In this document: positions 4,694-57,950 of the stretch, one piece after another | Position numbering within the stretch: the first letter of the stretch is position 1 | Layout of the letters: the number at the start of each line of letters is the position of its first letter | Source of the DNA: Escherichia phage GEP001 | Strand: one strand, 5' to 3' | Length of the DNA stretch: 64,000 bases | Sequence record: PV173775 | Made by a program: the position numbers and the translations under genes | The notes under the pieces: model-generated | The model's database searches: none | What the model was told of the DNA's origin: nothing | What the model saw: only the letters and a program-made list of their open reading frames with translations

Positions 4694-6751
4694 ATGGAAC
4701 TTATTACAGAATTATTTGACGGCGCTTCGGCGCCGGTTGTTAACTTAAATCCTAAGCATAAAATACCTCAAATTTTTGCTATTCAAGCCGGTGAAGAAAG
4801 CGTGCTTCCTGGATTTAGATTTTGTACATACACCTCTGGCGGTGATACAAATAAAAACGTTAAGCCAGGCGATAAAATGATGCATATCGTAATGATAGGT
4901 GTTAATGAGAAACTATCATTAGTTAAACTTAAAAACTTAGGTGGAAATCCAATTGGTGTCATTAATGCGGTTTTTGATACTGCTCTTCAGACAATGAAAC
5001 AGTACAAAATTGACGCATGCTTATTCCGCGTACTAAAGAGTAAAACAAATGGCGCAGCTCGACAAATTCAAGTTATTGCTGACCGTTTAGTACGTACTAA
5101 AGGAGCAGGTCGATATGTTCTTTTAAAAGAAATCTGGGATTACGATAAAAAGTACGCATATATTATGGTTTACCGTAAAAATGCTAATTTAGAAGACATT
5201 CCAGGTGTACCTCCTATTTCAACTGAGTTATTCACAAAAGTTGAATCAAAGGTTGGTGATGTTTATGTAGATGTTAAAACAGGTAATGCTGTTCCTAAAG
5301 CTGTTGCTGTTGCTGCTTCTATTGCTTTAGAAAATGATAAGCGCACGGATCAAGCTGTTATTCAGAAAACTAAAATTAGTCGTCGATTAGCAGCACAAGC
5401 TCAATACTCTACTGTCGATGCTTCACTTCAGGGTGATAGCTTCGCTGCTAAGAAATATCAAGAGTTTGAATCTAAAGTTCCGGTATATAAAGCAGAAGGA
5501 CCAATGAACTCCGGCGTTATTCAGGTTGGTTCAAACTTCAGCAAAGGAGCTATCGGTGGTATGAGAAGTGCTTCTCGTTTTAAATCTAATGATTATGAAC
5601 TAGAAAGCTTCCGAAATCATATTGCATTGGCTCATGCACGTTTACGTGATCCATCTATCAAGTTACAGAGCGATATAACATATCAAGGTTCTCAAGAATA
5701 TTTAAAGAATAAAGAATTTTTTGATTATAAAACTGATAAAATTTTAAGCGATCTTGCTGACATTAATATTTCTAATAGCTTTGATGTTATTAAGAAAATT
5801 GTCAATGATTTAGTTAAAGGTTCTAAAGCCACACCAGATGAAAAGGTAGCTATTGTTCAATTTGTCATGAATGGCATTTATAAATTGATTAATGAGTCTG
5901 CTTCTCAAGCGTATGAATATGCAAGTACTGAAGTACCCCCAAAAGGATTAACTCAAGCTGAGTCTGATGTAATTGAAGATTATTGCGCAGATTCATATGT
6001 TGAAATGAACTCGTTCCTTTTAGGTAAACCAGATTCTACTCGTGAAGAATATATGGAACGAGCTATTAAACACATCGAGACAATGGATTCTGCTTTTGCC
6101 AAAGGATCAGTTCTTCCTCCAGGAACTACGCTTTACCGTGGCCAAGAAGTTACCTTTAAAACTTTACGTCATAATATTGAAAATAAAATGTTCTATTTTA
6201 AGAACTTCGTATCCACATCGCTTAAACCAAATATCTTCGGTGAGTATGGTAAAAACTATATGGCCCTAGATGATTCCGGCACAGTATTTTCTGGTGAAGG
6301 AGAAGGTTCAGTTGATGCTGAAGATTTGATGCATATGGGCAGTCATTCTGCGTATGCCAATGAAGATGCTGAAACTAGCGTTGGTATGGTAATTAAAGGA
6401 GCTGAGCGAATCAAAGTTATCGTTCCAGGTCATTTATCAGGATTTCCATCAGAAGCTGAAGTTATTTTACCGCGTGGAATTTTGCTGAAGATTAATAAAG
6501 TGAGTACGTACATGATGAAAGAAACTGCTTATAACAAGTATCTAATCGAAGGCACAATCGTTCCTCCTTCTGAACAATTAGAAGAATCGGTATATGATGG
6601 TGACCATCTGATGGAAACTGGTGAAGTTCGTCCAATGACTGGATTTAACCAATTCCTTGTAGAAGAATCAAAAGAAGAGGAAAACGAAGTTTCTCAAATC
6701 TTGGCTTCTTTGGTTAACATCAACGGAATGTCTAAAAAGTTCAAGATGTAG
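4694..6751 (+). CDS. Alt-like ADP-ribosyltransferase, copy 2 (tandem paralog)
   Basis: 685 aa; N-terminal ~230 aa clearly homologous to copy 1 (MELITELFD..., GFRFCTYTSGGDTN, KMMHIV, QYKIDAC, RQIQVIADRL); middle region diverged; ART motifs retained (TLYRGQ, FVSTSL, SEAEVILPRG). Confidence 0.8.
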   Translation: MELITELFDGASAPVVNLNPKHKIPQIFAIQAGEESVLPGFRFCTYTSGGDTNKNVKPGDKMMHIVMIGVNEKLSLVKLKNLGGNPIGVINAVFDTALQTMKQYKIDACLFRVLKSKTNGAARQIQVIADRLVRTKGAGRYVLLKEIWDYDKKYAYIMVYRKNANLEDIPGVPPISTELFTKVESKVGDVYVDVKTGNAVPKAVAVAASIALENDKRTDQAVIQKTKISRRLAAQAQYSTVDASLQGDSFAAKKYQEFESKVPVYKAEGPMNSGVIQVGSNFSKGAIGGMRSASRFKSNDYELESFRNHIALAHARLRDPSIKLQSDITYQGSQEYLKNKEFFDYKTDKILSDLADINISNSFDVIKKIVNDLVKGSKATPDEKVAIVQFVMNGIYKLINESASQAYEYASTEVPPKGLTQAESDVIEDYCADSYVEMNSFLLGKPDSTREEYMERAIKHIETMDSAFAKGSVLPPGTTLYRGQEVTFKTLRHNIENKMFYFKNFVSTSLKPNIFGEYGKNYMALDDSGTVFSGEGEGSVDAEDLMHMGSHSAYANEDAETSVGMVIKGAERIKVIVPGHLSGFPSEAEVILPRGILLKINKVSTYMMKETAYNKYLIEGTIVPPSEQLEESVYDGDHLMETGEVRPMTGFNQFLVEESKEEENEVSQILASLVNINGMSKKFKM

Positions 6752-15660: not shown

Positions 15661-17172
15661 TTATAAATTAACTGTTTTCATTACGTAATTAAATTTTTCA
15701 TCTGCGTATCGCTGAATACGATCAATGCCGTGTTTTAAAAGATAGTTCAAATGAACATATTTCTTTTTCGTATTAGCAGATTTTGGCTTAACACCGCAAT
15801 CATCTATGAGGTCCCAGACCGTTGCAATTGTTTTAGAACCATGCTTACGTAATACACGACCTATTGTTTGCAATACAATAATTTTAGATTTAACACCGTG
15901 CGCTAAAACAACGTGATGCAGATTTTTAACTGAAATACCAGTAGAAAATACACCATAACTAGCTACTATAATTATTCCTTTACCGTTTTCAGCTAAGGTT
16001 TTCATTACGTTGCGTGTTTCAGTATCAACTTCCCCTGATACGTAATAAACTTTATCGTATTCATTTTTAATTAAATCGAAAATAGCTTTACCATGTGATA
16101 CATGCTTAAACATGACAAAAGTGTTTTCATCTTTTTGCGCAAGTTTAATAGCTAATTTAGCGATCCATTTATTTCTTTTACTGAGTCCAGTAATAATTTT
16201 TATTTCTTCTTGGTAAGTTTTTCCCTTTAATTTAGTAGTGAACTCATCAGGATAGCGAAGAAAAATACTATTAATTTTTAACTCAGTTACTTGTCCATCT
16301 TCCATTAATTTAGAAGTCGTTACTGGCTTAAATATTTCACCAAACATTCCAACATACTGCATGATATTAGCTTTGCCATCACGTAATGAACCTGATAGAC
16401 CAAATTTGAACATGCAGTTATTTAAACCTGATATGATAGATGAAATACTTTTTCCTGTGGCAAGATGGCATTCATCATTCATCATCATTCCAAACTGTGA
16501 GAACCATTCTTTTGGTTGTTTTACTACAGTTTGCCATGTACCAACAATTACCGGTGCATCATTTTTATATTTATCATCTTTTGATGCTCCACCACCGATT
16601 TTCTTTATCATTGCATGACTGAATAAACGATAGTCAACAAAGTCATCAGCCATCTGAGTTGTCAGAGCAGTTGTTGGAACAATGATAAGAATTTTACCTT
16701 CATAATTTTCCAAATAATAACGTGCAAGCAAAGCTTGAATTAAAGATTTACCTGCGGATGTTGGAAGATTAAGAATTCTACGACGATTAACTAATCCTTC
16801 GAACACTGCATCTTTTTGATACCAGTGTGGTTCAATTCTTTTATTTCCTGAATAGATTTCTAACTTAGAAAGCCATTCATCAAAATCTTTTCTTGATAAT
16901 TCTTCTTTTTCGTTAATTTGCGGGTCAATCCAAGCTTTATAGCCAAAGTTATCGCAGAACTTTTTAATTTGCCCAACTAAGCCGAATGGAAGAAGGCGAT
17001 TATAATCTAAAAGACGGATTCGTCCATCCCAGTGACCATATTTGTATTTCGGATTAAAACGATACCCATCAGCTTCAAAGCTAAAGAAATCACGGAGTTC
17101 ATGAAATGTACTTTCTTCACAATCAATTCTCACGTGACTAAAATCATAAAAATGTACTTTAATGTCAGTCAT
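15661..17172 (-). CDS. uvsW: UvsW SF2 DNA helicase
   Basis: 503 aa; Walker A LPTSAGKS and DExH-type box MMNDECHL; synteny with uvsY and inh. Confidence 0.9.
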   Translation of the reverse strand: MTDIKVHFYDFSHVRIDCEESTFHELRDFFSFEADGYRFNPKYKYGHWDGRIRLLDYNRLLPFGLVGQIKKFCDNFGYKAWIDPQINEKEELSRKDFDEWLSKLEIYSGNKRIEPHWYQKDAVFEGLVNRRRILNLPTSAGKSLIQALLARYYLENYEGKILIIVPTTALTTQMADDFVDYRLFSHAMIKKIGGGASKDDKYKNDAPVIVGTWQTVVKQPKEWFSQFGMMMNDECHLATGKSISSIISGLNNCMFKFGLSGSLRDGKANIMQYVGMFGEIFKPVTTSKLMEDGQVTELKINSIFLRYPDEFTTKLKGKTYQEEIKIITGLSKRNKWIAKLAIKLAQKDENTFVMFKHVSHGKAIFDLIKNEYDKVYYVSGEVDTETRNVMKTLAENGKGIIIVASYGVFSTGISVKNLHHVVLAHGVKSKIIVLQTIGRVLRKHGSKTIATVWDLIDDCGVKPKSANTKKKYVHLNYLLKHGIDRIQRYADEKFNYVMKTVNL

Positions 17173-17201
17173 GTCTAAATACCATGTAATAAATATATCT
17201 A

Positions 17202-21983: not shown

Positions 21984-22012
21984 TTACAGCAAGGTTATCA
22001 CATGTTACTATA
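21984..22012 (+). promoter_or_regulatory. sigma70-type early promoter for the 88-aa ORF between genes 24 and 23
   Basis: AAAGTTGTTTACA with -35 TTTACA, 17 nt spacer, -10 TACTAT. Confidence 0.6.
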
Positions 22013-22041
22013 GACCTATCAAAAACATGAGGAGATTAAAA

Positions 22042-22308
22042 ATGAACAAGTTAAACTTTATTCGTACTACTCTGTCCGCTCTTGATAAAGACATCAAAGC
22101 CCTGGTAGAAAAATATGGTTCCAATCCTAACGGTAATGCAGTGAATGCCCTAGTTAAGAAATATGAAACCATGGCTTATGCTACTGACTTCTGGTGGAAC
22201 GGTGAATATTCTACCCATACCAAAGACAAATCTGGTAACTGGCTGAAAATCCAAGAAAATCGTATTGACTTCCGTGACATCATCAACCGTCGAGTTAAGA
22301 TTGCGTAG
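22042..22308 (+). CDS. hypothetical early protein, 88 aa (cassette between genes 24 and 23)
   Basis: ATG at 22042 with SD GAGGA (track ORF starts 22027); early promoter 21984-22012; hairpin 22322-22343; opposite strand to flanking late genes. Confidence 0.55.
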   Translation: MNKLNFIRTTLSALDKDIKALVEKYGSNPNGNAVNALVKKYETMAYATDFWWNGEYSTHTKDKSGNWLKIQENRIDFRDIINRRVKIA

Positions 22309-22321
22309 TATAGAAACAAGA

Positions 22322-22343
22322 ATGGGAGACCGAAGTCTCCCAT
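22322..22343. terminator. bidirectional hairpin between the 88-aa ORF and gene 23
   Basis: ATGGGAGAC-CGAAG-TCTCCCAT between convergent gene ends. Confidence 0.6.
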
Positions 22344-22357
22344 AATAAGGTTATATC

Positions 22358-23923
22358 TTAGATACCTTTAACATATACACGGCGGAAGTAAGCGTTTTTA
22401 CCAAGGCTATTCAGAATAGAAGGCATACCGCTCTGGATGCGAGAAGCCGGAGCCTGAGCAGCGGATTCTGCAAATGGGTTGATACCGATACCGTAACGAG
22501 TTTTGAATCCCATTACTGGTTGGAAGTTCTTCGGATCAGAACCACGCAGCGGAGTCAGAGCTACATATGGAGCATAGTAAATACCAGCATCCATTTCGTT
22601 CGGACCTTTATAACCTACAGTGAAATAATCCTGTTTAGCATACTGGTCGATATATACACGGTATTTACCACCCAGAACACCAGCAAATACTGACTTGGTA
22701 GTATCAGTGTTAAAGCCGGTAGCCAGACCCTGTGCAGCATAAGAAATGCCAGTATCAACTGAAGCCAGAACGTTAACTACGTTACGGGAAGCGATAATGA
22801 AGTTACCTTCACCACGACCGGTCTGACGAGCAATTTCAACTGCTTCTTTGTCAATCTGGAACAACAGAGCTTTAAAGGATTCACCCGCCCAGCGAGCACC
22901 ACGAATATCAATCGGATCCTGGAAGTCAAATACACCAGCTTTAGAACCCGGAGTCAGGGTCATACCAGATTTACCAACCTGAGCTGAGTAGTTAATCCAA
23001 TCAACAACTTCACGGTTGATTTCCAGCATGATTTCGGTAGCCAGAATACCAGACAGTTCAGCATCAGCATCCATACCGTGAACAGCGCGGAGGTCTTGTG
23101 CTAATTCGATAGAGTAAGCAGCTTTCAGCTGACGAGATTTAGCTTCGATAACTTGTTTATCGATACGGAAGCCCATTTCATTCCATGGGTTATCGGTAGA
23201 ACCGTTGAAACCTTCCTGGAGTTCAGCGATAGAAGTAGCCATACCTTCAGCGATTTCTACCAATGCACCAGCTTCCATTTGTTTCTTAATTTCAGCATCT
23301 AATTTAGCTGCATCAGTTGCGCTTGCACTAATTGTTACTTGAGCAGAAGCCTGCAGATACACAGTACCAGTGTCCTGGAAGAAGTGAGTATAGATATCAC
23401 CTACTGTGGTTTCTGTGCTAGCAGCCAGAGCCGGGAATTTCTTAGCAGCGCCCTGACCAGAGAACATTGCATCTGGACCATACATTGGGTGGAATGCTTC
23501 TTTAGCGCCGGCAGCGATTGGGTCTTTACCATATACTGCGCGCAGTGCGAATACCTGACCGGTCGGGCTGTTCATCGGCTGAACACCGCAAATATCGAAA
23601 GCAATCAGGTTAGGAATAGCACGACGTACCATACCCATAACAGCTGGGCCAATCTGAGTTACTGCGCCAGAAGTCTGACCAGCAGCGATGTTAGTAGCGT
23701 TGTAACCGTGGTCACCACCGATTTCAGCTTCTGTTAAGAAAGAACCGAATGCCTGAGCAATTTTTTCGTCTTTGTACTCTGGAGCTGTCTGGAAATCTTT
23801 TTCCTGGTTTTCAAAGATTTTAGCGATAATCGCTTGTTTGCTATTAGCAATTTCCGGTAAACCTTCACCTTCCAGTAATGGCTTCCATTTGTTCAAAAGT
23901 TCAGCTTTAGTTTTGATAGTCAT
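22358..23923 (-). CDS. 23: major capsid protein (T4 gp23)
   Basis: 521 aa; N-terminus MTIKTKAELLNKWKPLLEGEGLPEIANSKQAIIAKIFENQ matches T4 gp23 as recalled. Confidence 0.95.
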   Translation of the reverse strand: MTIKTKAELLNKWKPLLEGEGLPEIANSKQAIIAKIFENQEKDFQTAPEYKDEKIAQAFGSFLTEAEIGGDHGYNATNIAAGQTSGAVTQIGPAVMGMVRRAIPNLIAFDICGVQPMNSPTGQVFALRAVYGKDPIAAGAKEAFHPMYGPDAMFSGQGAAKKFPALAASTETTVGDIYTHFFQDTGTVYLQASAQVTISASATDAAKLDAEIKKQMEAGALVEIAEGMATSIAELQEGFNGSTDNPWNEMGFRIDKQVIEAKSRQLKAAYSIELAQDLRAVHGMDADAELSGILATEIMLEINREVVDWINYSAQVGKSGMTLTPGSKAGVFDFQDPIDIRGARWAGESFKALLFQIDKEAVEIARQTGRGEGNFIIASRNVVNVLASVDTGISYAAQGLATGFNTDTTKSVFAGVLGGKYRVYIDQYAKQDYFTVGYKGPNEMDAGIYYAPYVALTPLRGSDPKNFQPVMGFKTRYGIGINPFAESAAQAPASRIQSGMPSILNSLGKNAYFRRVYVKGI

Positions 23924-48049: not shown

Positions 48050-48607
48050 TTATTGCCTCTCATACACGTAGCTTCTTAATTTATTAGCCCAACGACTCCA
48101 ATTTCCAACTATAGTTTTTGTGTAATTTTTAACAAGGGTTTTTCTTATTGGAGCTGGAGGATCGGTTGGTTCAGTAGTATCAGAAGATGACCTAGAATTA
48201 CTGCCAGAACCTCCAGATTCACTTTGTTCTTGGTAGTCATATATTAACGTTACTTCATAAGTGAATGTCTTCTGGAGGTTTTGAGGAGCTTTCCATAGAT
48301 ATAACTGAGTATTAGAATCAGTTGGAAGGTCTTCCCATGAAGCAGCAGTTTTAAATTCATTATCTAAACGATATTTCAATGCGTCATTTCCAAATCCAAA
48401 TACAGATTCATACGTTCCATATAAACGATTTTCTTCTACTAAAACCCCAGGAGTTTCTTCGTAACTAGTTATATTTATAGATACTAACGTTTCACCTGTT
48501 TCTAATTGAGCGGTAAAGGTGACGTCGATAGAAGAACCTTCCATGGATTCTCCTAAATCAGCGCTCATTGGAAGTATATTAGCCAATGTCAATCCTCGAT
48601 CCATCAA
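48050..48607 (-). CDS. hypothetical protein (T4 5.1 position)
   Basis: ORF of 185 aa on track overlapping the gene 5 3' end by 29 nt; true start probably an internal Met. Confidence 0.55.
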
Positions 48608-51380: not shown

Positions 51381-52204
51381 TGGCTATTTTTCAAATAATT
51401 AATGAAAGCACTCCCCAAGTTCCAAAGGTTAAGCAATCATTAAACGAAAAGAAATGGATTCAGATAGGTCTTGAATACAGAAAGGCCAAAGCAAAAGGAA
51501 TGACAGGAAAGCAATTTGCTGAAGAAAGAGGAATCAAATACTCTACGTTTACTTCGGCAATGTCAAAATATGCTTCAGGAATTAAAACGGCTGAAAAGAT
51601 TCAAAAGCTTGAATCAAAACCAATGAATAAACTCAATAAGCAAGAAAGACAACTGCTTATGATAAATTCATTCAGGCAAACGTTGCGTGATAAAATTCGT
51701 AATGAAGGTGCAGCAATTAATAATAAAACCAGAAAGTGGTTTGCTGAAACTATTAAGCAAGTAAAAGGACATAAAGTTGTTCGCCCGCAGCCGGGACGAA
51801 TATATGCTTTTGCTTATGATGCTAAACACAAGGAAACTCTTCCTTATTGGGATAAATTTCCTTTGATAATTTACCTTGGTTTAGGTAAACACAATTTAAT
51901 GTACGGATTGAACTTGCACTATATTCCACCTAAAGCTCGTCAGCAATTTCTAGAAGAGCTTTTAAAGCAATATGCAAATACGCCTACTATTACTAATAAA
52001 ACGAAATTAAAAATTGATTGGAGTCAAGTGAAAGGATTTAGGGGTGCAGACCAAATGATTAAGGCATATATACCTGGTAATATCATGGGTAGTCTTGTTG
52101 AAATCGCCCCGAAAGACTGGGCGAACGTTGTGTTGATGCCACTTCAGCAGTTCGTTTCAAAAGGAAAACGTTTCTCTGCAAACAAAGTCTGGTCAAATAT
52201 CTAA
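51380..52204 (+). CDS. 2: DNA end protector protein (T4 gp2)
   Basis: 274 aa as T4 gp2; start overlaps gene 4 stop. Confidence 0.85.
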
Positions 52205-52310
52205 TTCTATTATCTTCCATTCTTTTCTATTGTTTGTTCTAATTGGAATTGAATGGAAGGGACTTAGACCCATTATACCACCAACATTTATAAAGCATTA
52301 TGAGGAATAT

Positions 52311-52841
52311 ATGTCGCAAGCACTACAACAAATTTTTAACCAAGCAAATACAACTAACTTTGTAGTATCAATACCGCATAGTAATACTACATCTGCTTTT
52401 ACTTTAAATGCTCAGTCAGTTCCTATTCCAGGAATTAGAATACCTGTTACTGATACCGTGACTGGGCCGTTTGGACTAGGCAGAGCGCAACGTCCAGGAG
52501 TTACATTTGAGTACGACCCACTCATTGTGAGATTTATAGTTGATGAAGAGCTTAAGTCGTGGATAGGAATGTATGAATGGATGCTAGGAACTAGTAACTA
52601 TCTTACGGGTGAAAATACTGCCCAAAAAACAGGTCCTGAATACATTACGCTTTACATTTTAGATAATAGTAAAACTGAAATCGTGATGTCAATAAATTTT
52701 TATAAGCCTTGGGTTTCTGACCTGTCTGAAGTAGAATTTAGCTACACGGAAGATTCAGACCCAGCTTTAGTATGTACAGCAACGATTCCTTATACGTATT
52801 TTCAAGTAGAAAAAGATGGTAAAATTATAGCAGAAGTTTAA
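52311..52841 (+). CDS. 3: tail completion / sheath stabiliser (T4 gp3)
   Basis: ATG at 52311 with SD GAGGAA gives 176 aa as T4 gp3 (track ORF begins upstream at 52230). Confidence 0.8.
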   Translation: MSQALQQIFNQANTTNFVVSIPHSNTTSAFTLNAQSVPIPGIRIPVTDTVTGPFGLGRAQRPGVTFEYDPLIVRFIVDEELKSWIGMYEWMLGTSNYLTGENTAQKTGPEYITLYILDNSKTEIVMSINFYKPWVSDLSEVEFSYTEDSDPALVCTATIPYTYFQVEKDGKIIAEV

Positions 52842-52842
52842 T

Positions 52843-52866
52843 GCTTCAGTTTCATGTGTTATAATC
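52843..52866 (+). promoter_or_regulatory. MotA-dependent middle promoter upstream of gene 1
   Basis: MotA box TGCTTCA (52843-52849), 11 nt spacer, extended -10 TGTTATAAT (52858-52866). Confidence 0.6.
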
Positions 52867-52890
52867 TTAACTAAATTTGAGGAGAAACAT

Positions 52891-53615
52891 ATGAAACTAA
52901 TCTTTTTAAGTGGTGTAAAGCGTAGTGGAAAAGATACTACCGCAGATTTTATCATGAATAATTATTCTGCAGTTAAATATCAACTTGCTGGTCCTATTAA
53001 GGATGCATTGGCTTATGCATGGGGCGTATTTGCAGCAAACACTGACTATCCTTGCTTAACTCGTAAAGAGTTTGAAGGAATTGACTATGATCGTGAGACT
53101 AATTTAAATCTGACTAAATTAGAAGTAATTACGATTATGGAACAAGCATTTTGCTATCTTAATAGTAAAAGCCCAATTAAAGGTGTGTTTGTTTTTGATG
53201 ACGAAGGAAAGGAATCAGTTACTTTCGTAGCATTTAACAAGATTGCTGACGTTATAAATAATATTGAAGATCAATGGTCAGTCCGTCGTCTGATGCAAGC
53301 CCTAGGTACGGATTTGATTGTTAATAACTTCGACCGCATGTATTGGGTAAAATTATTTGCTTTAGATTATCTTGATAAATTTAACTCAGGTTATGATTAT
53401 TATATCGTTCCTGATACTCGTCAAGATCATGAAATGGATGCGGCTAGGGCGATGGGTGCTACAGTAATTCATGTAGTTCGTCCTGGTCAAAAATCCAATG
53501 ATACTCATATTACAGAAGCTGGATTGCCAATTCGTGATGGTGATTTAGTAATTACAAACGATGGTTCTCTTGAAGAACTTTTTTCTAAAATTAAAAATAC
53601 ACTAAAGGTACTATA

Positions 53616-53616
<1 letters not shown>
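52891..53616 (+). CDS. 1: deoxynucleoside monophosphate kinase (T4 gp1)
   Basis: 241 aa; P-loop LSGVKRSGKDT; MotA-type middle promoter at 52843-52866. Confidence 0.9.
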
Positions 53617-54313
<697 letters not shown>

Positions 54314-54326
54314 TTTCACAAAGTTG

Positions 54327-54355
54327 TTTACACGCTGATGAGGTAGTGATACTAT
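54327..54355 (+). promoter_or_regulatory. early promoter for ipI
   Basis: TTTCACAAAGTTGTTTACA...TGATACTAT; -35 TTTACA, 17 nt spacer, -10 TACTAT. Confidence 0.65.
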
Positions 54356-54385
54356 TATCTCATCAAAATTAATTAGGAAAATAAA

Positions 54386-54673
54386 ATGAAAACATTTAAA
54401 GAATTTACTTCTACAACTACCCCGGTTTCTACCATTACCGAAGCTACTCTTACTTCTGAAGTTATTAAAGCAAATAAAGGACGAGAAGGTAAACCAATGA
54501 TTAGTCTGGTTGATGGCGAAGAAATCAAAGGTACTGTTTACCTAGGCGATGGGTGGTCTGCTAAAAAGGATGGTGCTACAATCGTTATCTCTCCTGCTGA
54601 AGAAACTGCGTTGTTTAAAGCTAAACATATTTCTGCGGCACATCTCAAGATTATTGCTAAAAATCTTTTGTAA
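54386..54673 (+). CDS. ipI: internal protein I (capsid-packaged, anti-restriction in T4)
   Basis: 95 aa; N-terminal capsid-targeting sequence MKTFKEFTSTTTPVSTITE; early promoter 54327-54355. Confidence 0.85.
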   Translation: MKTFKEFTSTTTPVSTITEATLTSEVIKANKGREGKPMISLVDGEEIKGTVYLGDGWSAKKDGATIVISPAEETALFKAKHISAAHLKIIAKNLL

Positions 54674-54693
54674 TAAATATTTCACAAAGTTGT

Positions 54694-54722
54694 TTACATA
54701 GGGTTTTAGTTGTGATACTATT
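54694..54722 (+). promoter_or_regulatory. early promoter for the 61-aa membrane protein gene
   Basis: The same 19-nt TTTCACAAAGTTGTTTACA as the ipI promoter, then -10 TACTAT after 17 nt. Confidence 0.65.
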
Positions 54723-54749
54723 ACCCTATCAACTACTGAGGAGAATAAA

Positions 54750-54935
54750 ATGAAACGTTGTGAATTAATTCGAAATGTTGCTATTGCAATTTCTGCTTCT
54801 GCTTTTAGTTTTTCAATGTTTGTTGGATTTATATGCGGATTATTGACTACAGCAGAAAACGTTTTTTCACTTGTAGTAGCATTTTTAATTGGTTTAATCG
54901 CTATTGTTATGGATAAAATTTCTAAAGGTGAATAG
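54750..54935 (+). CDS. small membrane protein, 61 aa, two predicted TM helices
   Basis: Hydrophobic segments AIAISASAFSFSMFVGFICGLL and FSLVVAFLIGLIAIV; own early promoter 54694-54722. Confidence 0.55.
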   Translation: MKRCELIRNVAIAISASAFSFSMFVGFICGLLTTAENVFSLVVAFLIGLIAIVMDKISKGE

Positions 54936-55320
54936 AATGTATAAAGTGTACGCGGATTATCAGGCTAATCCATCTAAAAAGCCAAGCTGTCAAATAGGAT
55001 GGGCTCATGATACTTTGCTTGAAGCAGTAGATGCTGCTCAAAAATTGGGATATAAATATGTAGAGATTGTTCAACTTCCATCAGGAACAGTTATTACTCT
55101 CGAAGAGTTTAATAATATTAAATCAAACTTTTTACTTTTTGCAGGTGATAATTATTATCCTCGTGGTGGATATGCTGATTTAATCGCGAAAGCCGCTACC
55201 GAAGATGAACTTCGTGATATTATTAAAGAAAATGAAAATAAACCGATGTATGGTTCTAATCGCTTTGATTGGTGGCAAATCGTAAATGCCCATACTCATA
55301 CTATTGTTGATGAAGGCTGA
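54904..55320 (+). CDS. hypothetical protein
   Basis: ORF of 138 aa on track; likely start is Met at 54940 (MYKVYADY). Confidence 0.55.
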   Translation: MLWIKFLKVNRMYKVYADYQANPSKKPSCQIGWAHDTLLEAVDAAQKLGYKYVEIVQLPSGTVITLEEFNNIKSNFLLFAGDNYYPRGGYADLIAKAATEDELRDIIKENENKPMYGSNRFDWWQIVNAHTHTIVDEG

Positions 55321-55322
55321 TA

Positions 55323-55628
55323 ATGATTCTTTATGCGAAAGTATCGTCCATTGAAAATGGATATAAATATGATCAAGAAGCAGCTAAAGCCTTGATTGAT
55401 GATTATGGCATTTTAACGTGTTTTGAAGTTGAAAAGGTTTACATTGACCGTTCATCTTCTCAAGTTAAATTAGTGAAGGAAGACCGTAAATTTAATACAG
55501 TAAATTTTGATTTCTTTATTGAAACAGAAAAAGGTCCTCTTGAATATGATATTTTCAAGAATCCTTTGGGTCTTGAATGTATTAAATATACTTACATTAA
55601 TATGGTGAACAAATGTATATTCGTTTAG
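55323..55628 (+). CDS. hypothetical protein, 101 aa
   Basis: ORF closely packed with neighbours; no motif recognised. Confidence 0.5.
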   Translation: MILYAKVSSIENGYKYDQEAAKALIDDYGILTCFEVEKVYIDRSSSQVKLVKEDRKFNTVNFDFFIETEKGPLEYDIFKNPLGLECIKYTYINMVNKCIFV

Positions 55629-56128
55629 GCAGCACAATTCCTAAGGGTTACGTAATTGATGTCACTACCTGGGAAAATGATGGTGACAACTATAAAACAA
55701 AAACTCTGTTTGGCGTAGAAGAGCATGAGCTCCAACAATTTAAATATCTCTTGAAGAAGTTTAAGAGTCGTCATTCTAGTACCAAAGTTGAACGTTATTG
55801 TGGTAATGGTTTGTTCAGCGAGCAAGAGCTTTTTATATATGAATATTTGGTTGAAGGACTGTTCTCAGACCAACTTTATCCAGAATTCATTAAAAAGGTC
55901 TTTGACATAGAAGTTGACCTTGGTAATAAATCCGAAGAAGATGAAGAACGTGTATTTGACTTATTCTTTGTGAATGGTAATAAGATATCTGAAGGCCTCA
56001 TTGATATTCTTGGTCATGCTTCTGAATACTATGAATATGATTTCTTGCGTGTAGTTGAACATGTAGAATTTGCTTATATCGAAGAAGAAATTGTTTTGCC
56101 GACTGTTAAAATGGTTGATTTGCTTTAA
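55613..56128 (+). CDS. hypothetical acidic protein, 171 aa
   Basis: ORF overlapping previous ORF end; no motif recognised. Confidence 0.55.
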   Translation: MYIRLGSTIPKGYVIDVTTWENDGDNYKTKTLFGVEEHELQQFKYLLKKFKSRHSSTKVERYCGNGLFSEQELFIYEYLVEGLFSDQLYPEFIKKVFDIEVDLGNKSEEDEERVFDLFFVNGNKISEGLIDILGHASEYYEYDFLRVVEHVEFAYIEEEIVLPTVKMVDLL

Positions 56129-56214
56129 GAATTATTTGTTATTATTAACTCATATCGCACTGATTAATACCCTCTATCATCAAGGGTTCTTATTTGAGAG
56201 CCTTTGTTAATAAT

Positions 56215-56287
56215 TGGGAATTAGCCAAGTTGGTAAGGCACTGGATTTTGATTCCAGGATGCAAAGGTTCGAGTCCTTTATTCCCAG
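56215..56287 (+). tRNA. tRNA-Gln (anticodon UUG)
   Basis: Cloverleaf read by hand: acceptor TGGGAAT/ATTCCCA, anticodon stem CTGGA/TCCAG with loop TTTTGAT, T-loop TTCGAGT; CCA not encoded. Confidence 0.85.
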
Positions 56288-56288
56288 C

Positions 56289-56375
56289 GCGAGAATGGTC
56301 AAATTGGTAAAGGCACAGCACTTAAAATGCTGCGGAATGATTTCCTTGTGGGTTCGAGTCCCACTTCTCGCACCA
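56289..56375 (+). tRNA. tRNA-Leu (anticodon UAA), type II
   Basis: Acceptor GCGAGAA/TTCTCGC, anticodon loop CTTAAAA, long variable arm, T-loop TTCGAGT, encoded CCA; starts 1 nt after tRNA-Gln. Confidence 0.85.
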
Positions 56376-56380
56376 AATTT

Positions 56381-56454
<74 letters not shown>

Positions 56455-56464
56455 ATTTAATTTA

Positions 56465-56538
56465 CTCCGTGTAGCTCAGTTTGGTAGAGCGTCTGCTTTG
56501 GGAGCAGAATGTCGTAGGTTCAAATCCTGCTACGGAGA
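56465..56538 (+). tRNA. tRNA-Pro (anticodon UGG)
   Basis: Acceptor CTCCGTG/TACGGAG, D arm GCTC...GAGC, anticodon loop TTTGGGA, T-loop TTCAAAT. Confidence 0.85.
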
Positions 56539-56540
56539 CT

Positions 56541-56630
56541 GGAGGCGTGGCAGAGTGGTTTAATGCACCGGTCTTGAAAACCGGCAGTCGCTCCGGCGAC
56601 TCATAGGTTCAAATCCTATCGCCTCCGCCA
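56541..56630 (+). tRNA. tRNA-Ser (anticodon UGA), type II
   Basis: Acceptor GGAGGCG/CGCCTCC, anticodon stem CCGGT/ACCGG with loop CTTGAAA, long variable arm, T-loop TTCAAAT, CCA. Confidence 0.85.
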
Positions 56631-56636
56631 GTTTTT

Positions 56637-56712
56637 GCTGATTTAGCTCAGTAGGTAGAGCACCTCACTTGTAATGAGGACGTCGGCGGTTCGATTCCGT
56701 CAATCAGCACCA
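56637..56712 (+). tRNA. tRNA-Thr (anticodon UGU)
   Basis: Acceptor GCTGATT/AATCAGC, anticodon stem CCTCA/TGAGG with loop CTTGTAA, T-loop TTCGATT, CCA. Confidence 0.85.
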
Positions 56713-56713
56713 A

Positions 56714-56788
56714 GGCCCTGTAGCTGGAAGGTTCAAGCAAGCGACTCATAATCGCCAGATGGTGGTTCAATTCCACCCAGGGCCACCA
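56714..56788 (+). tRNA. tRNA with anticodon CAU (T4 tRNA-Ile-type reading AUA after modification, or Met)
   Basis: Acceptor GGCCCTG/CAGGGCC, anticodon loop CTCATAA, T-loop TTCAATT, CCA; T4 tRNA-Ile carries a modified CAU-type anticodon. Confidence 0.75.
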
Positions 56789-56797
56789 AATTAATTT

Positions 56798-56884
56798 GGG
56801 GAGTTATCCCGTAGAGGTAGCGGTGTGGACTGTAAATTCATTGTCATTGCGACTCGGGTGGTTCGACTCCATCACTCCCCACCA
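56798..56884 (+). tRNA. tRNA-Tyr-like (anticodon GUA), type II, irregular D arm
   Basis: Acceptor GGGGAGT/ACTCCCC, anticodon stem GTGGA/TTCAT (two G-U pairs) with loop CTGTAAA, long variable arm, T arm GGTGG-TTCGACT-CCATC, CCA; D stem only 3 bp with 4 nt linker. Confidence 0.6.
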
Positions 56885-56888
56885 ATTT

Positions 56889-56963
56889 GGATGTGTAGCT
56901 CAATGGCAGAGCGATCGCCTGTTAAGCGATTGGTTATAGGTTCGAATCCTATCACGTCCGCCA
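56889..56963 (+). tRNA. tRNA-Asn (anticodon GUU)
   Basis: Acceptor GGATGTG/CACGTCC, D arm GCTC-AATGGCA-GAGC, anticodon stem ATCGC/GCGAT with loop CTGTTAA, T arm ATAGG-TTCGAAT-CCTAT, CCA. Confidence 0.8.
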
Positions 56964-56967
56964 AATC

Positions 56968-57043
56968 CGAGGCATAGCTCAGAAGGAAGAGCAAGGACCT
57001 TCTAAGTCCTAGGTCGTAGGTTCGATCCCTACTGCCTCGACCA
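56968..57043 (+). tRNA. tRNA-Arg (anticodon UCU)
   Basis: Acceptor CGAGGCA/TGCCTCG, D arm GCTC-AGAAGGAA-GAGC, anticodon stem AGGAC/GTCCT with loop CTTCTAA, T arm GTAGG-TTCGATC-CCTAC, CCA. Confidence 0.85.
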
Positions 57044-57059
57044 ATTAAGTGAGGAAAAT

Positions 57060-57410
57060 ATGAAAGGTAATGTTTATTTAGTAGTTCATGATTTAACATT
57101 CTATTTTAATCACAATGACACTGTTATTTCTGAACGTGTAATTAATTTACTTTATCAGCACGCAGATTATGTTTATGTCGAAAACGAATATGGTCATTGG
57201 CAATTTCTCAAAAATCGTTCATTTGGTTTAGATGGTTACGAATACTTTGAACGTAAAGACCTTTTAGATAAAATTCCGTTATCTACACAATATCAAAATC
57301 ATAAGTCTTTACATAAATGCCGTCAAATTCGAAATGCTGAATCTGCGTATGAAGCAATTGATTTATGGCGTAAACGTCGTGAACAGATTGATGCATTAAA
57401 AGAATATTAA
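57060..57410 (+). CDS. hypothetical protein, 116 aa
   Basis: ORF with SD GAGGAAAA immediately after tRNA-Arg. Confidence 0.5.
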   Translation: MKGNVYLVVHDLTFYFNHNDTVISERVINLLYQHADYVYVENEYGHWQFLKNRSFGLDGYEYFERKDLLDKIPLSTQYQNHKSLHKCRQIRNAESAYEAIDLWRKRREQIDALKEY

Positions 57411-57745: not shown

Positions 57746-57878
57746 GTATCTAGGCCTTTCTGGACCTCTCTAGGCATCATTTAGTTTCTACCCTTTATAA
57801 TATATTATCCTATCCTTTAATTGCCCCTCCCTTCCCTAGAATTCCCTAAAACTTTTTAAAAAATTTTTCACAAAACTG

Positions 57879-57908
57879 TTTACATCCCTGTTCTTCCATG
57901 GTACTATA
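57879..57908 (+). promoter_or_regulatory. early promoter with A/T-rich UP element
   Basis: TTTTTCACAAAACTGTTTACA, -10 TACTAT; upstream A/T tract. Confidence 0.55.
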
Positions 57909-57950
57909 TCAATATCAACTACTGATACAGAAAACAACTTGGAGAATAAA

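Follow-up and report, generated by a model that had tools for sequence, protein, structure and literature searches.

Between ipI and the tRNA genes of Escherichia phage GEP001 (record PV173775) lie four small open reading frames (ORFs), and the question raised by this locus is whether they make up an accessory island of new genes or a stretch of genome already familiar from T4. A preliminary description of the window (the whole stretch of 64,000 nucleotides analysed here) had counted four ORFs on one strand, which are indeed found in the ORF list at 54750-56128, had called them unknown, and had placed them where T4 carries segB. It is now highly probable that what lies here is the standard tRNA leader cassette of T-even phages, an early four-gene unit; this estimate takes in the inferences on deletion and function that are given below. 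The genes of the cassette and their positions were already known, and the fourth is a previously sequenced, widely conserved hypothetical gene.

The ipI-to-tRNA interval and its T4 counterpart

The entire window is collinear with T4, from approximately 126 kb down to 66 kb, its plus strand corresponding to the T4 minus strand. Positions 52000-54939 match T4 76265-73326 at 97% identity. The 4-kb stretch around the ORFs matched 1154 phage records, nearly all of them T4-like coliphages, and the closest were Escherichia phages EPIMRB01 and AUBRB02 (97.7% identity). In the T4 record, ipI is followed by trna.4 (61 aa), trna.3 (136 aa), trna.2 (95 aa) and tRNA-Gln. Judged by sequence, the first three ORFs of the window are the orthologues of these three genes, with the same order, strand and place between ipI and tRNA-Gln (Table 1). 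The window differs from T4 in the N-terminal half of trna.3, in six extra residues at the tail of trna.2 and in the added fourth gene. Closely spaced ribosome-binding sites precede the four starts, and the ORFs are co-oriented and tightly packed, with an overlap of 16 nt between trna.2 and the 171-aa ORF. Rfam found no structured RNA within 54750-56128. The preliminary description had itself allowed that the ORFs might be conserved T4 genes in the same order and that segB had been misplaced, and this was found to be so for three of the four.

Table 1. Features of the ipI-to-tRNA region and of the seg slots in the window
Feature	Positions	Strand	Description
ipI	54386-54673	+	From the ORF list; preceded by gene 1, 57A and 57B
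Early-promoter-like site	54693-54721	+	TTTACA, 17-nt spacer, TG-extended TACTAT; precedes the cassette
trna.4 orthologue	54750-54935	+	61 aa; two hydrophobic (predicted membrane) stretches
trna.3 orthologue	54937-55320	+	127 aa; divergent N-terminal half, invariant C-terminal domain of ~60 aa
trna.2 orthologue	55323-55628	+	101 aa
Acidic WENDGD-motif protein, phrog_2290	55613-56128	+	171 aa; not in T4
MotA-box-like site	56121-56145	+	TGCTTTA, TATTAT 12 nt on; overlaps the stop codon of the 171-aa ORF
Ten tRNA genes	56215-57043	+	ARAGORN; 9 of 10 recovered by Rfam
Putative SegB recognition site in tRNA-Asn	56939-56965	+	27 bp, GGTTCGAATCCTATCACGTCCGCCAAA; GGTTCRANTCC core and CCAR
ORF of phrog_3355	57060-57410	+	116 aa; in the segment substituting T4 tRNA-Ile, segB and tRNA-Arg
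segE slot			22 bp in the window, 638 bp in T4
segD slot			369 bp with one 93-aa ORF in the window, 765 bp in T4
segC slot			19 bp in the window, 582 bp in T4

The first ORF, which sits directly after ipI and before trna.3 as in T4, encodes a protein identical to T4 Trna.4 (NP_049748) at 61 of 61 residues, and all six nucleotide differences between the two genes are synonymous. It matches phrog_1692 over profile positions 1-61 of 61 (E 6e-35). The two hydrophobic segments reported earlier for this protein were borne out by hydropathy, at about residues 9-33 and 37-54. The most likely start of the second ORF is the ATG at 54937, which has an AAGGTGA ribosome-binding site, gives 127 aa and is the start annotated in a close relative; an alternative upstream TTG at 54904 would give 138 aa. 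This ORF matches phrog_1411 over profile positions 2-127 of 129 (E 3e-55), and its 56% identity to T4 Trna.3 (NP_049747) lies almost entirely in the C-terminal half. The C-terminal domain reads NFLLFAGDNYYPxGGYxDL...FDWWQIVNA; the last ~60 residues are nearly invariant, all 24 invariant columns fall in the C-terminal half, and stand-alone protein versions also exist. Homologues at 50-98% identity carry a precomputed PF26894 assignment, while the Pfam scan of the window ORF itself was empty. The structure model of the trna.3 protein was moderately confident (pLDDT 86, pTM 0.64) and gave no informative fold match. The third ORF product is identical to T4 Trna.2 (NP_049746) at 88 of 91 residues (97%) and matches phrog_2023 (E 1e-48), and its C-terminus diverges from that of T4 at the deletion junction described below.

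The ORFs are not unknown, as all four belong to PHROG families that cover them at full length (E 6e-35 to 2e-66) and three are named T4 genes. All four are under purifying selection, with dN/dS values of 0.17 for the C-terminal half of trna.3, 0.19 for trna.2 and 0.14-0.16 for the 171-aa gene. That the three longer ORFs carry no recognisable motifs was confirmed by Pfam, NCBIfam and PADLOC scans, which gave no significant match for any of the four ORFs or for the 116-aa ORF, the PADLOC library being one of defence proteins and not of counter-defence proteins. In T4, the RNAs of trna.2, trna.3 and trna.4 are all classed as early, and so are the proteins of trna.2 and trna.3 (PMC9697503 supplement). 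All three T4 genes are non-essential on Escherichia coli K-12, with transposons in 92-98% of TA sites, and the Bas37 orthologues of trna.2-trna.4 are likewise non-essential. The picture of a functionally unassigned, hyperplastic island thus holds in that the genes have no assigned function in the literature searched, are dispensable in T4 and lie in a variable region, and fails in that they form a conserved T4 gene block. Relatives differ in whether they have the 171-aa ORF, in the N-terminal half of trna.3, which has been exchanged, and in the inner tRNA segment, which has been replaced.

The 61-aa gene had also been credited with its own early promoter. A promoter-like site does stand upstream of the cassette, and ipI is preceded by a nearly identical one at 54327-54355. 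Repeated blocks of ~80 bp were recovered by blastn at 54308-54391, 54675-54755 and 57848-57925, so that copies are found upstream of ipI and e.8 too. A generic promoter scan was not enriched, with 11 sites found against 10.7 expected in shuffles, and the early-promoter call therefore rests on conservation and on the expression data from T4. From these we infer early promoter function for the site at 54693-54721, which leaves this part of the preliminary description standing for the site itself and conditional for its activity. At the other end of the cassette, the TGCTTTA stretch presumably represents a match to the MotA-box consensus. With its TATTAT, it is on sequence grounds a probable middle promoter of the tRNA operon, and a middle promoter has been described just upstream of the T4 tRNA cluster (PMC2330249). 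T4 retains the TGCTTTA stretch at its deletion junction.

The segB slot and the tRNA array

In T4, segB (71253-71918) is preceded by seven tRNA genes, the last of them tRNA-Ile, and followed by tRNA-Arg; from trna.2 onwards the order is tRNA-Gln, Leu, Gly, Pro, Ser, Thr, Ile, segB, tRNA-Arg, rnaD and rnaC. Its discoverers also placed segB inside the tRNA cluster (Brok-Volchanskaya et al., 2008; PMC2330249). The ipI-to-tRNA interval, which the preliminary description had named as the place of segB in T4, is therefore not that place; in the alignment to T4, the segB segment lies opposite 56734-57409 and not opposite 54750-56128. This true segB slot is of the T2L type, without a counterpart in T4, and contains most of tRNA-Met(CAU), followed by tRNA-Tyr, tRNA-Asn, tRNA-Arg and the 116-aa ORF, and the complete tRNA set of the window is Gln, Leu, Gly, Pro, Ser, Thr, Met(CAU), Tyr, Asn and Arg, with no segB. 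To read the interval as an island of new genes is misleading, since it is a textbook T4 block and the slot of the missing segB comes about 1 kb later.

The absence of an endonuclease from the interval was upheld. None of the four ORFs has a Pfam match of any kind at E <= 1, and hence none to the GIY-YIG domain, with a library that detects this domain in T4 SegB and in the endonuclease of phage KAW1E185, and tblastn found no Seg relatives there. Across the window, no relatives of T4 SegA-G, MobB-E or I-TevI/II were found by tblastn at E <= 1e-2, the best Seg match having an E of 0.35. The T4 record agrees on the positions of segD, flanked by genes 23 and 24, and of segE, beside uvsW, and the corresponding slots of the window hold no endonuclease-sized ORF, as had been stated. 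Endonuclease genes do occur in this region in other phages. KAW1E185 has a GIY-YIG endonuclease between tRNA-Gly and tRNA-Ser, Klebsiella phage Mineola has an endonuclease gene inside its tRNA array, and SegB homologues co-localise with tRNA genes in general, according to a 2026 study (PMC13096335). In the tequatroviruses Bas37 (bas37_0256) and JoYop (cm3_251), a putative endonuclease of ~200 aa stands directly after trna.2; trna.4, trna.3 and trna.2 precede it and the tRNA array follows, flanks that are also those of the window. This gene, which is absent from the window, replaces the slot of the 171-aa gene and tRNA-Gln; its product has no Pfam match and is unrelated to SegB.

The tRNA region of the window shares with that of T2L (PMC2330249) the tRNA set, the lack of segB and the presence of an ORF after tRNA-Arg. 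T2L, as known from that paper's description, differs in having two ORFs and about 1250 bp of non-homology, whereas the window has one ORF and 684 bp. The 27-bp site in tRNA-Asn has G6, A16, G18, A26 and A27, where tRNA-Ser of the window has A, G, C, G and T. These same five positions separate the preferred tRNA-Asn SegB site from the weaker tRNA-Ser site (PMC2330249). The window tRNA-Asn thus appears to carry the preferred SegB target sequence, and cleavage is predicted. Given this site and the T2L precedent, the phage is an expected recipient for SegB homing: it has an intact preferred SegB target sequence and is without SegB, SegC, SegD and SegE, and its tRNA region would be expected to be lost to T4 in a mixed infection.

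The 171-aa gene and its absence from T4

The product of the fourth ORF matches phrog_2290 (E 2e-66, profile positions 1-164 of 165). Its family comprises at least 959 clusters at 50% identity (E <= 1e-3), all of them stand-alone proteins of about 130-190 aa, and 617 clusters at 90% identity, every one of them annotated as hypothetical and none with a Pfam domain. The family is uniformly acidic (pI 4.05-5.6). Its motif G-Y...T-W-E-N-D-G-D and the conserved R146 are present in the window ORF; among 60 diverse members, E21, D23 and R146 are invariant, and G12, W20, N22, D25, F50, G64 and N65 are near-invariant. In the confident AlphaFold model (pLDDT 88, pTM 0.82), a beta-hairpin with WENDGD at its turn is accompanied by a helical bundle and by a third strand from R146. 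The clustering of E21, D23 and R146 at the hairpin turn of this model suggests a specific binding or catalytic site. Pfam searches with the 60 diverse members gave four isolated chance matches only. Nothing was found in PDB sequence searches with single proteins and the family profile, or when the literature was searched for RB69ORF151c and for the identifiers in PHROG and Pfam. A scan of 185,579 prokaryotic species' genomes returned one member, on a 43-kb MAG contig where it adjoins an array of ten tRNAs. This contig is probably phage DNA, and the family is apparently restricted to phages.

Window positions 55589-56108 (about 520 bp) have no T4 counterpart, T4 having about 11 bp in their place. 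T4-type phages show a deletion of ~507 bp between short (A)ATGGT repeats. The T4 junction reads ...AAATGGTAAATATGCTTTAAGAATTATTTG, joining the window sequence ATATGGTGA, which precedes the ORF start, to AAAATGGTTGATTTGCTTTAAG, the last codons of the ORF, so that T4 keeps the final ~20 nt of the 171-aa gene. The gene is kept (at >= 80% coverage) in 247 of 682 matching phage records, about a third, and in roughly one in two of the records that were sampled along the ranking an identical two-piece match, spanning 464 bp, marks the same deletion. The homologues in RB27 and RB32 are 98.8% and 87.7% identical, and RB69ORF151c, also a homologue, adjoins tRNA.2; these three share phrog_2290 and the position of the window ORF, and all are hypothetical proteins. 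T4-like phages that infect Klebsiella, Aeromonas, Proteus and Cronobacter carry syntenic homologues at 28-44% identity. A depositor's note likens the homologue in phage 235Ecol030PP to a T4 '14.2 kDa protein'. This likeness was ruled out, because a search of all T4 genome reading frames with the 171-aa family profile found no member (best E 0.37).

Because homologues hold the syntenic position in distant T4-like phages, the sequence evidence favours a deletion in the T4 lineage, with loss of the 171-aa gene, over a gain here. Insertion into the window lineage as mobile cargo seems quite improbable. It would suit the sharp, identical boundaries between presence and absence, the short direct repeats that flank the gene and the ability of nearby homing endonucleases to co-convert flanking DNA (PMC2330249, PMC13096335), but the distant homologues lie downstream of gene 1, 57A and 57B, at or in the tRNA array, and the last ~20 nt of the gene are recognisable in T4. 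Very improbable, too, is the idea that the four ORFs are a lineage-specific accessory island filling the T4 segB place. It is true that segB is missing from the window, that relatives differ in this region and that JoYop and Bas37 have their putative endonuclease directly after trna.2; T4 itself, however, has trna.4, trna.3 and trna.2 here, and three of the ORFs are orthologous to them. That some of the ORFs are chance frames in the AT-rich leader RNA of the tRNA operon is hardly credible. Their products are short, dispensable and devoid of known domains, yet the PHROG matches are full length, dN/dS is 0.14-0.19, the changes in trna.4 are synonymous only, each start has a ribosome-binding site, T4 Trna.2 and Trna.3 have been detected as proteins, and the structures of the 171-aa and trna.3 proteins are modelled with confidence. 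The four ORFs are genuine genes.

Possible functions and comparison with counter-defence proteins

In the proposed scheme for the leader cassette, an early promoter after ipI would drive trna.4, trna.3, trna.2 and the 171-aa gene and would read into the tRNA operon, whose own middle promoter would overlap the end of the fourth gene. Four small accessory proteins would thereby be made early and would act on host factors, plausibly in counter-defence. By analogy with neighbouring genes, such a host-factor or counter-defence role is tentatively put forward as the likeliest function, because the genes are dispensable in the laboratory, yet conserved under selection, and lie between proven counter-defence genes and a tRNA array; the proposal may well fail for some or all of the proteins. 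Hints in the same direction are the neighbours ipI and 57B/Acb1, the co-purification of Trna.2 with DRT1, and the recurrence of the 171-aa family within tRNA arrays of phages and beside gp30.3/AdfN homologues. T4 Trna.2 was one of two T4 proteins enriched in an active DRT1 pull-down (PMC13275509). That result is an association and not a function, and its authors left Trna.2 aside. When transposon mutants of T4 and Bas37 were screened against a number of defence systems, no phenotype was reported for trna.2, trna.3 or trna.4 (preprint). The gene table of Bas37 is without the 171-aa gene.

The genomic context of the 171-aa family was surveyed at 75 loci, which were reduced to 39 lineages (clusters at >= 45% identity), with flanks of up to 6 kb. 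A tRNA gene is found in the flank in 24 of the 39 lineages, and within 1 kb in 15; the tRNAs are on the strand of the family gene at each of the 41 loci that hold any tRNA. Among these tRNA-linked loci are some from jumbo phages of 350 kb and from unrelated contigs of 96-200 kb. The linkage is a strong excess over rates of 0.2 and 0.06 that were assumed and not measured, with many of the lineages being syntenic T4-like phages and thus non-independent. It may only reflect shared early accessory regions. 57B/Acb1 recurs upstream of family members, and a gp30.3-family gene follows them immediately at 11 loci in five lineages; gp30.3/AdfN has been described as an anti-DarTG enzyme (HIDEN-SEQ preprint).

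The main alternative to counter-defence is a role in phage tRNA biology for the whole cassette or at least for the 171-aa protein, in the maturation, modification, protection or repair of the co-transcribed tRNAs. The strand shared with the tRNAs at 41 of 41 loci, the tRNA within 1 kb in 15 of 39 lineages, and the invariant acidic and arginine residues, which fit an active site, all speak for such a role. It is nevertheless unlikely: no sequence or fold likeness to known RNA-processing or modifying enzymes was seen, T4 and about half of its relatives express the same tRNAs without the 171-aa gene, and 15 of the 39 lineages have no tRNA in the flanks examined (up to 6 kb either side). A doubtful, more specific reading would have the 171-aa protein and the phage tRNAs together counter tRNA-targeting immunity, the loss of the gene being a host-range trade-off, and would separately make Trna.2 a ligand, trigger or inhibitor of DRT1. 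An anticodon nuclease could, for example, be blocked, or the phage tRNAs could be protected or repaired.

Overall, the region is ordinary and already catalogued, and its one modest lead is the WENDGD family with its tie to tRNA arrays. The 171-aa gene represents a very large family that tracks tRNA arrays and counter-defence genes, and it is a reasonable candidate for functional screens. The cassette proteins have no sequence or fold similarity to IPI, 57B/Acb1 or gp30.3/AdfN, and their tie to these proteins is positional only: ipI and 57B adjoin the cassette upstream in the window, and the tie to gp30.3 is drawn from loci of the 171-aa family. What the counter-defence reading takes from these known systems is a common profile, for IPI (anti-GmrSD), 57B/Acb1 (anti-CBASS) and gp30.3/AdfN (anti-DarTG) are, like the proteins of the cassette, small, early and dispensable phage proteins.

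Homing-endonuclease slots and the SegB target

Relatives of any of the T4 homing endonucleases were searched for across the whole window, and none was found. The slots corresponding to T4 segE and segC have shrunk to 22 bp and 19 bp, while that of segD, in the interval between genes 24 and 23, holds a small ORF without a Pfam match (see table). Within the tRNA array, a sequence inside tRNA-Asn agrees with the preferred SegB recognition site as described in PMC2330249, and all five discriminating bases are present. Judged by its sequence, the phage should be able to act as a recipient in SegB homing. In the same array, tRNA-Tyr falls below the gathering score of the Rfam tRNA model, which the other nine tRNAs of the window reach.

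Features located in the window
Feature	Position	Strand	Remark
Second Alt-like ORF	4694-6751	+	685 aa, intact
T4 segE slot	17163-17186		shrunk to 22 bp
T4 segD slot, genes 24/23 interval	21988-22358		369 bp
93-aa ORF in segD slot	22027-22308	+	
T4 segC slot	48053-48073		shrunk to 19 bp
Repeated block (~80 bp) upstream of ipI	54308-54391		sequence comparison
Repeated block upstream of trna.4	54675-54755		sequence comparison
Repeated block upstream of e.8	57848-57925		sequence comparison
tRNA-Tyr	56798-56884		ARAGORN call
SegB-site-like sequence in tRNA-Asn	56939-56965	+	27 bp

The 171-aa family in other phages

At L006 3001-4008, a locus of another phage, and at ten other loci, a member of the 171-aa family lies within a tRNA array with a gp30.3 (PF08010) homologue directly downstream. 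The T4-like phages carrying this pairing in the tRNA array infect Klebsiella, Enterobacter and Cronobacter. The homologue in phage 235Ecol030PP (L092 2401-2916) bears the depositor's note 'similar to uncharacterized 14.2 kDa protein from T4'. The family profile matches no T4 reading frame, so this likeness was rejected as an apparent misannotation. On a 139-kb viral contig (L086), a tmRNA gene is predicted at 6381-6698, approximately 230 bp downstream of the family match and inside a 14-tRNA region.

Differences from T4 and a repeated block

The N-terminal half of trna.3 (54940-55124) is without nucleotide similarity to T4, between flanks that are 92–97% identical to it. Since relatives carry both types of N-terminal half, the difference is an allelic swap within the gene. 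The block repeated upstream of ipI, trna.4 and e.8 contains a promoter-like core, TTTACA-17-TGnTACTAT. At the second Alt-like ORF, the region is approximately 1690 bp longer than in T4, which has only the truncated remnants alt.-1/alt.-2 at this position, whereas the ORF of the window is intact.
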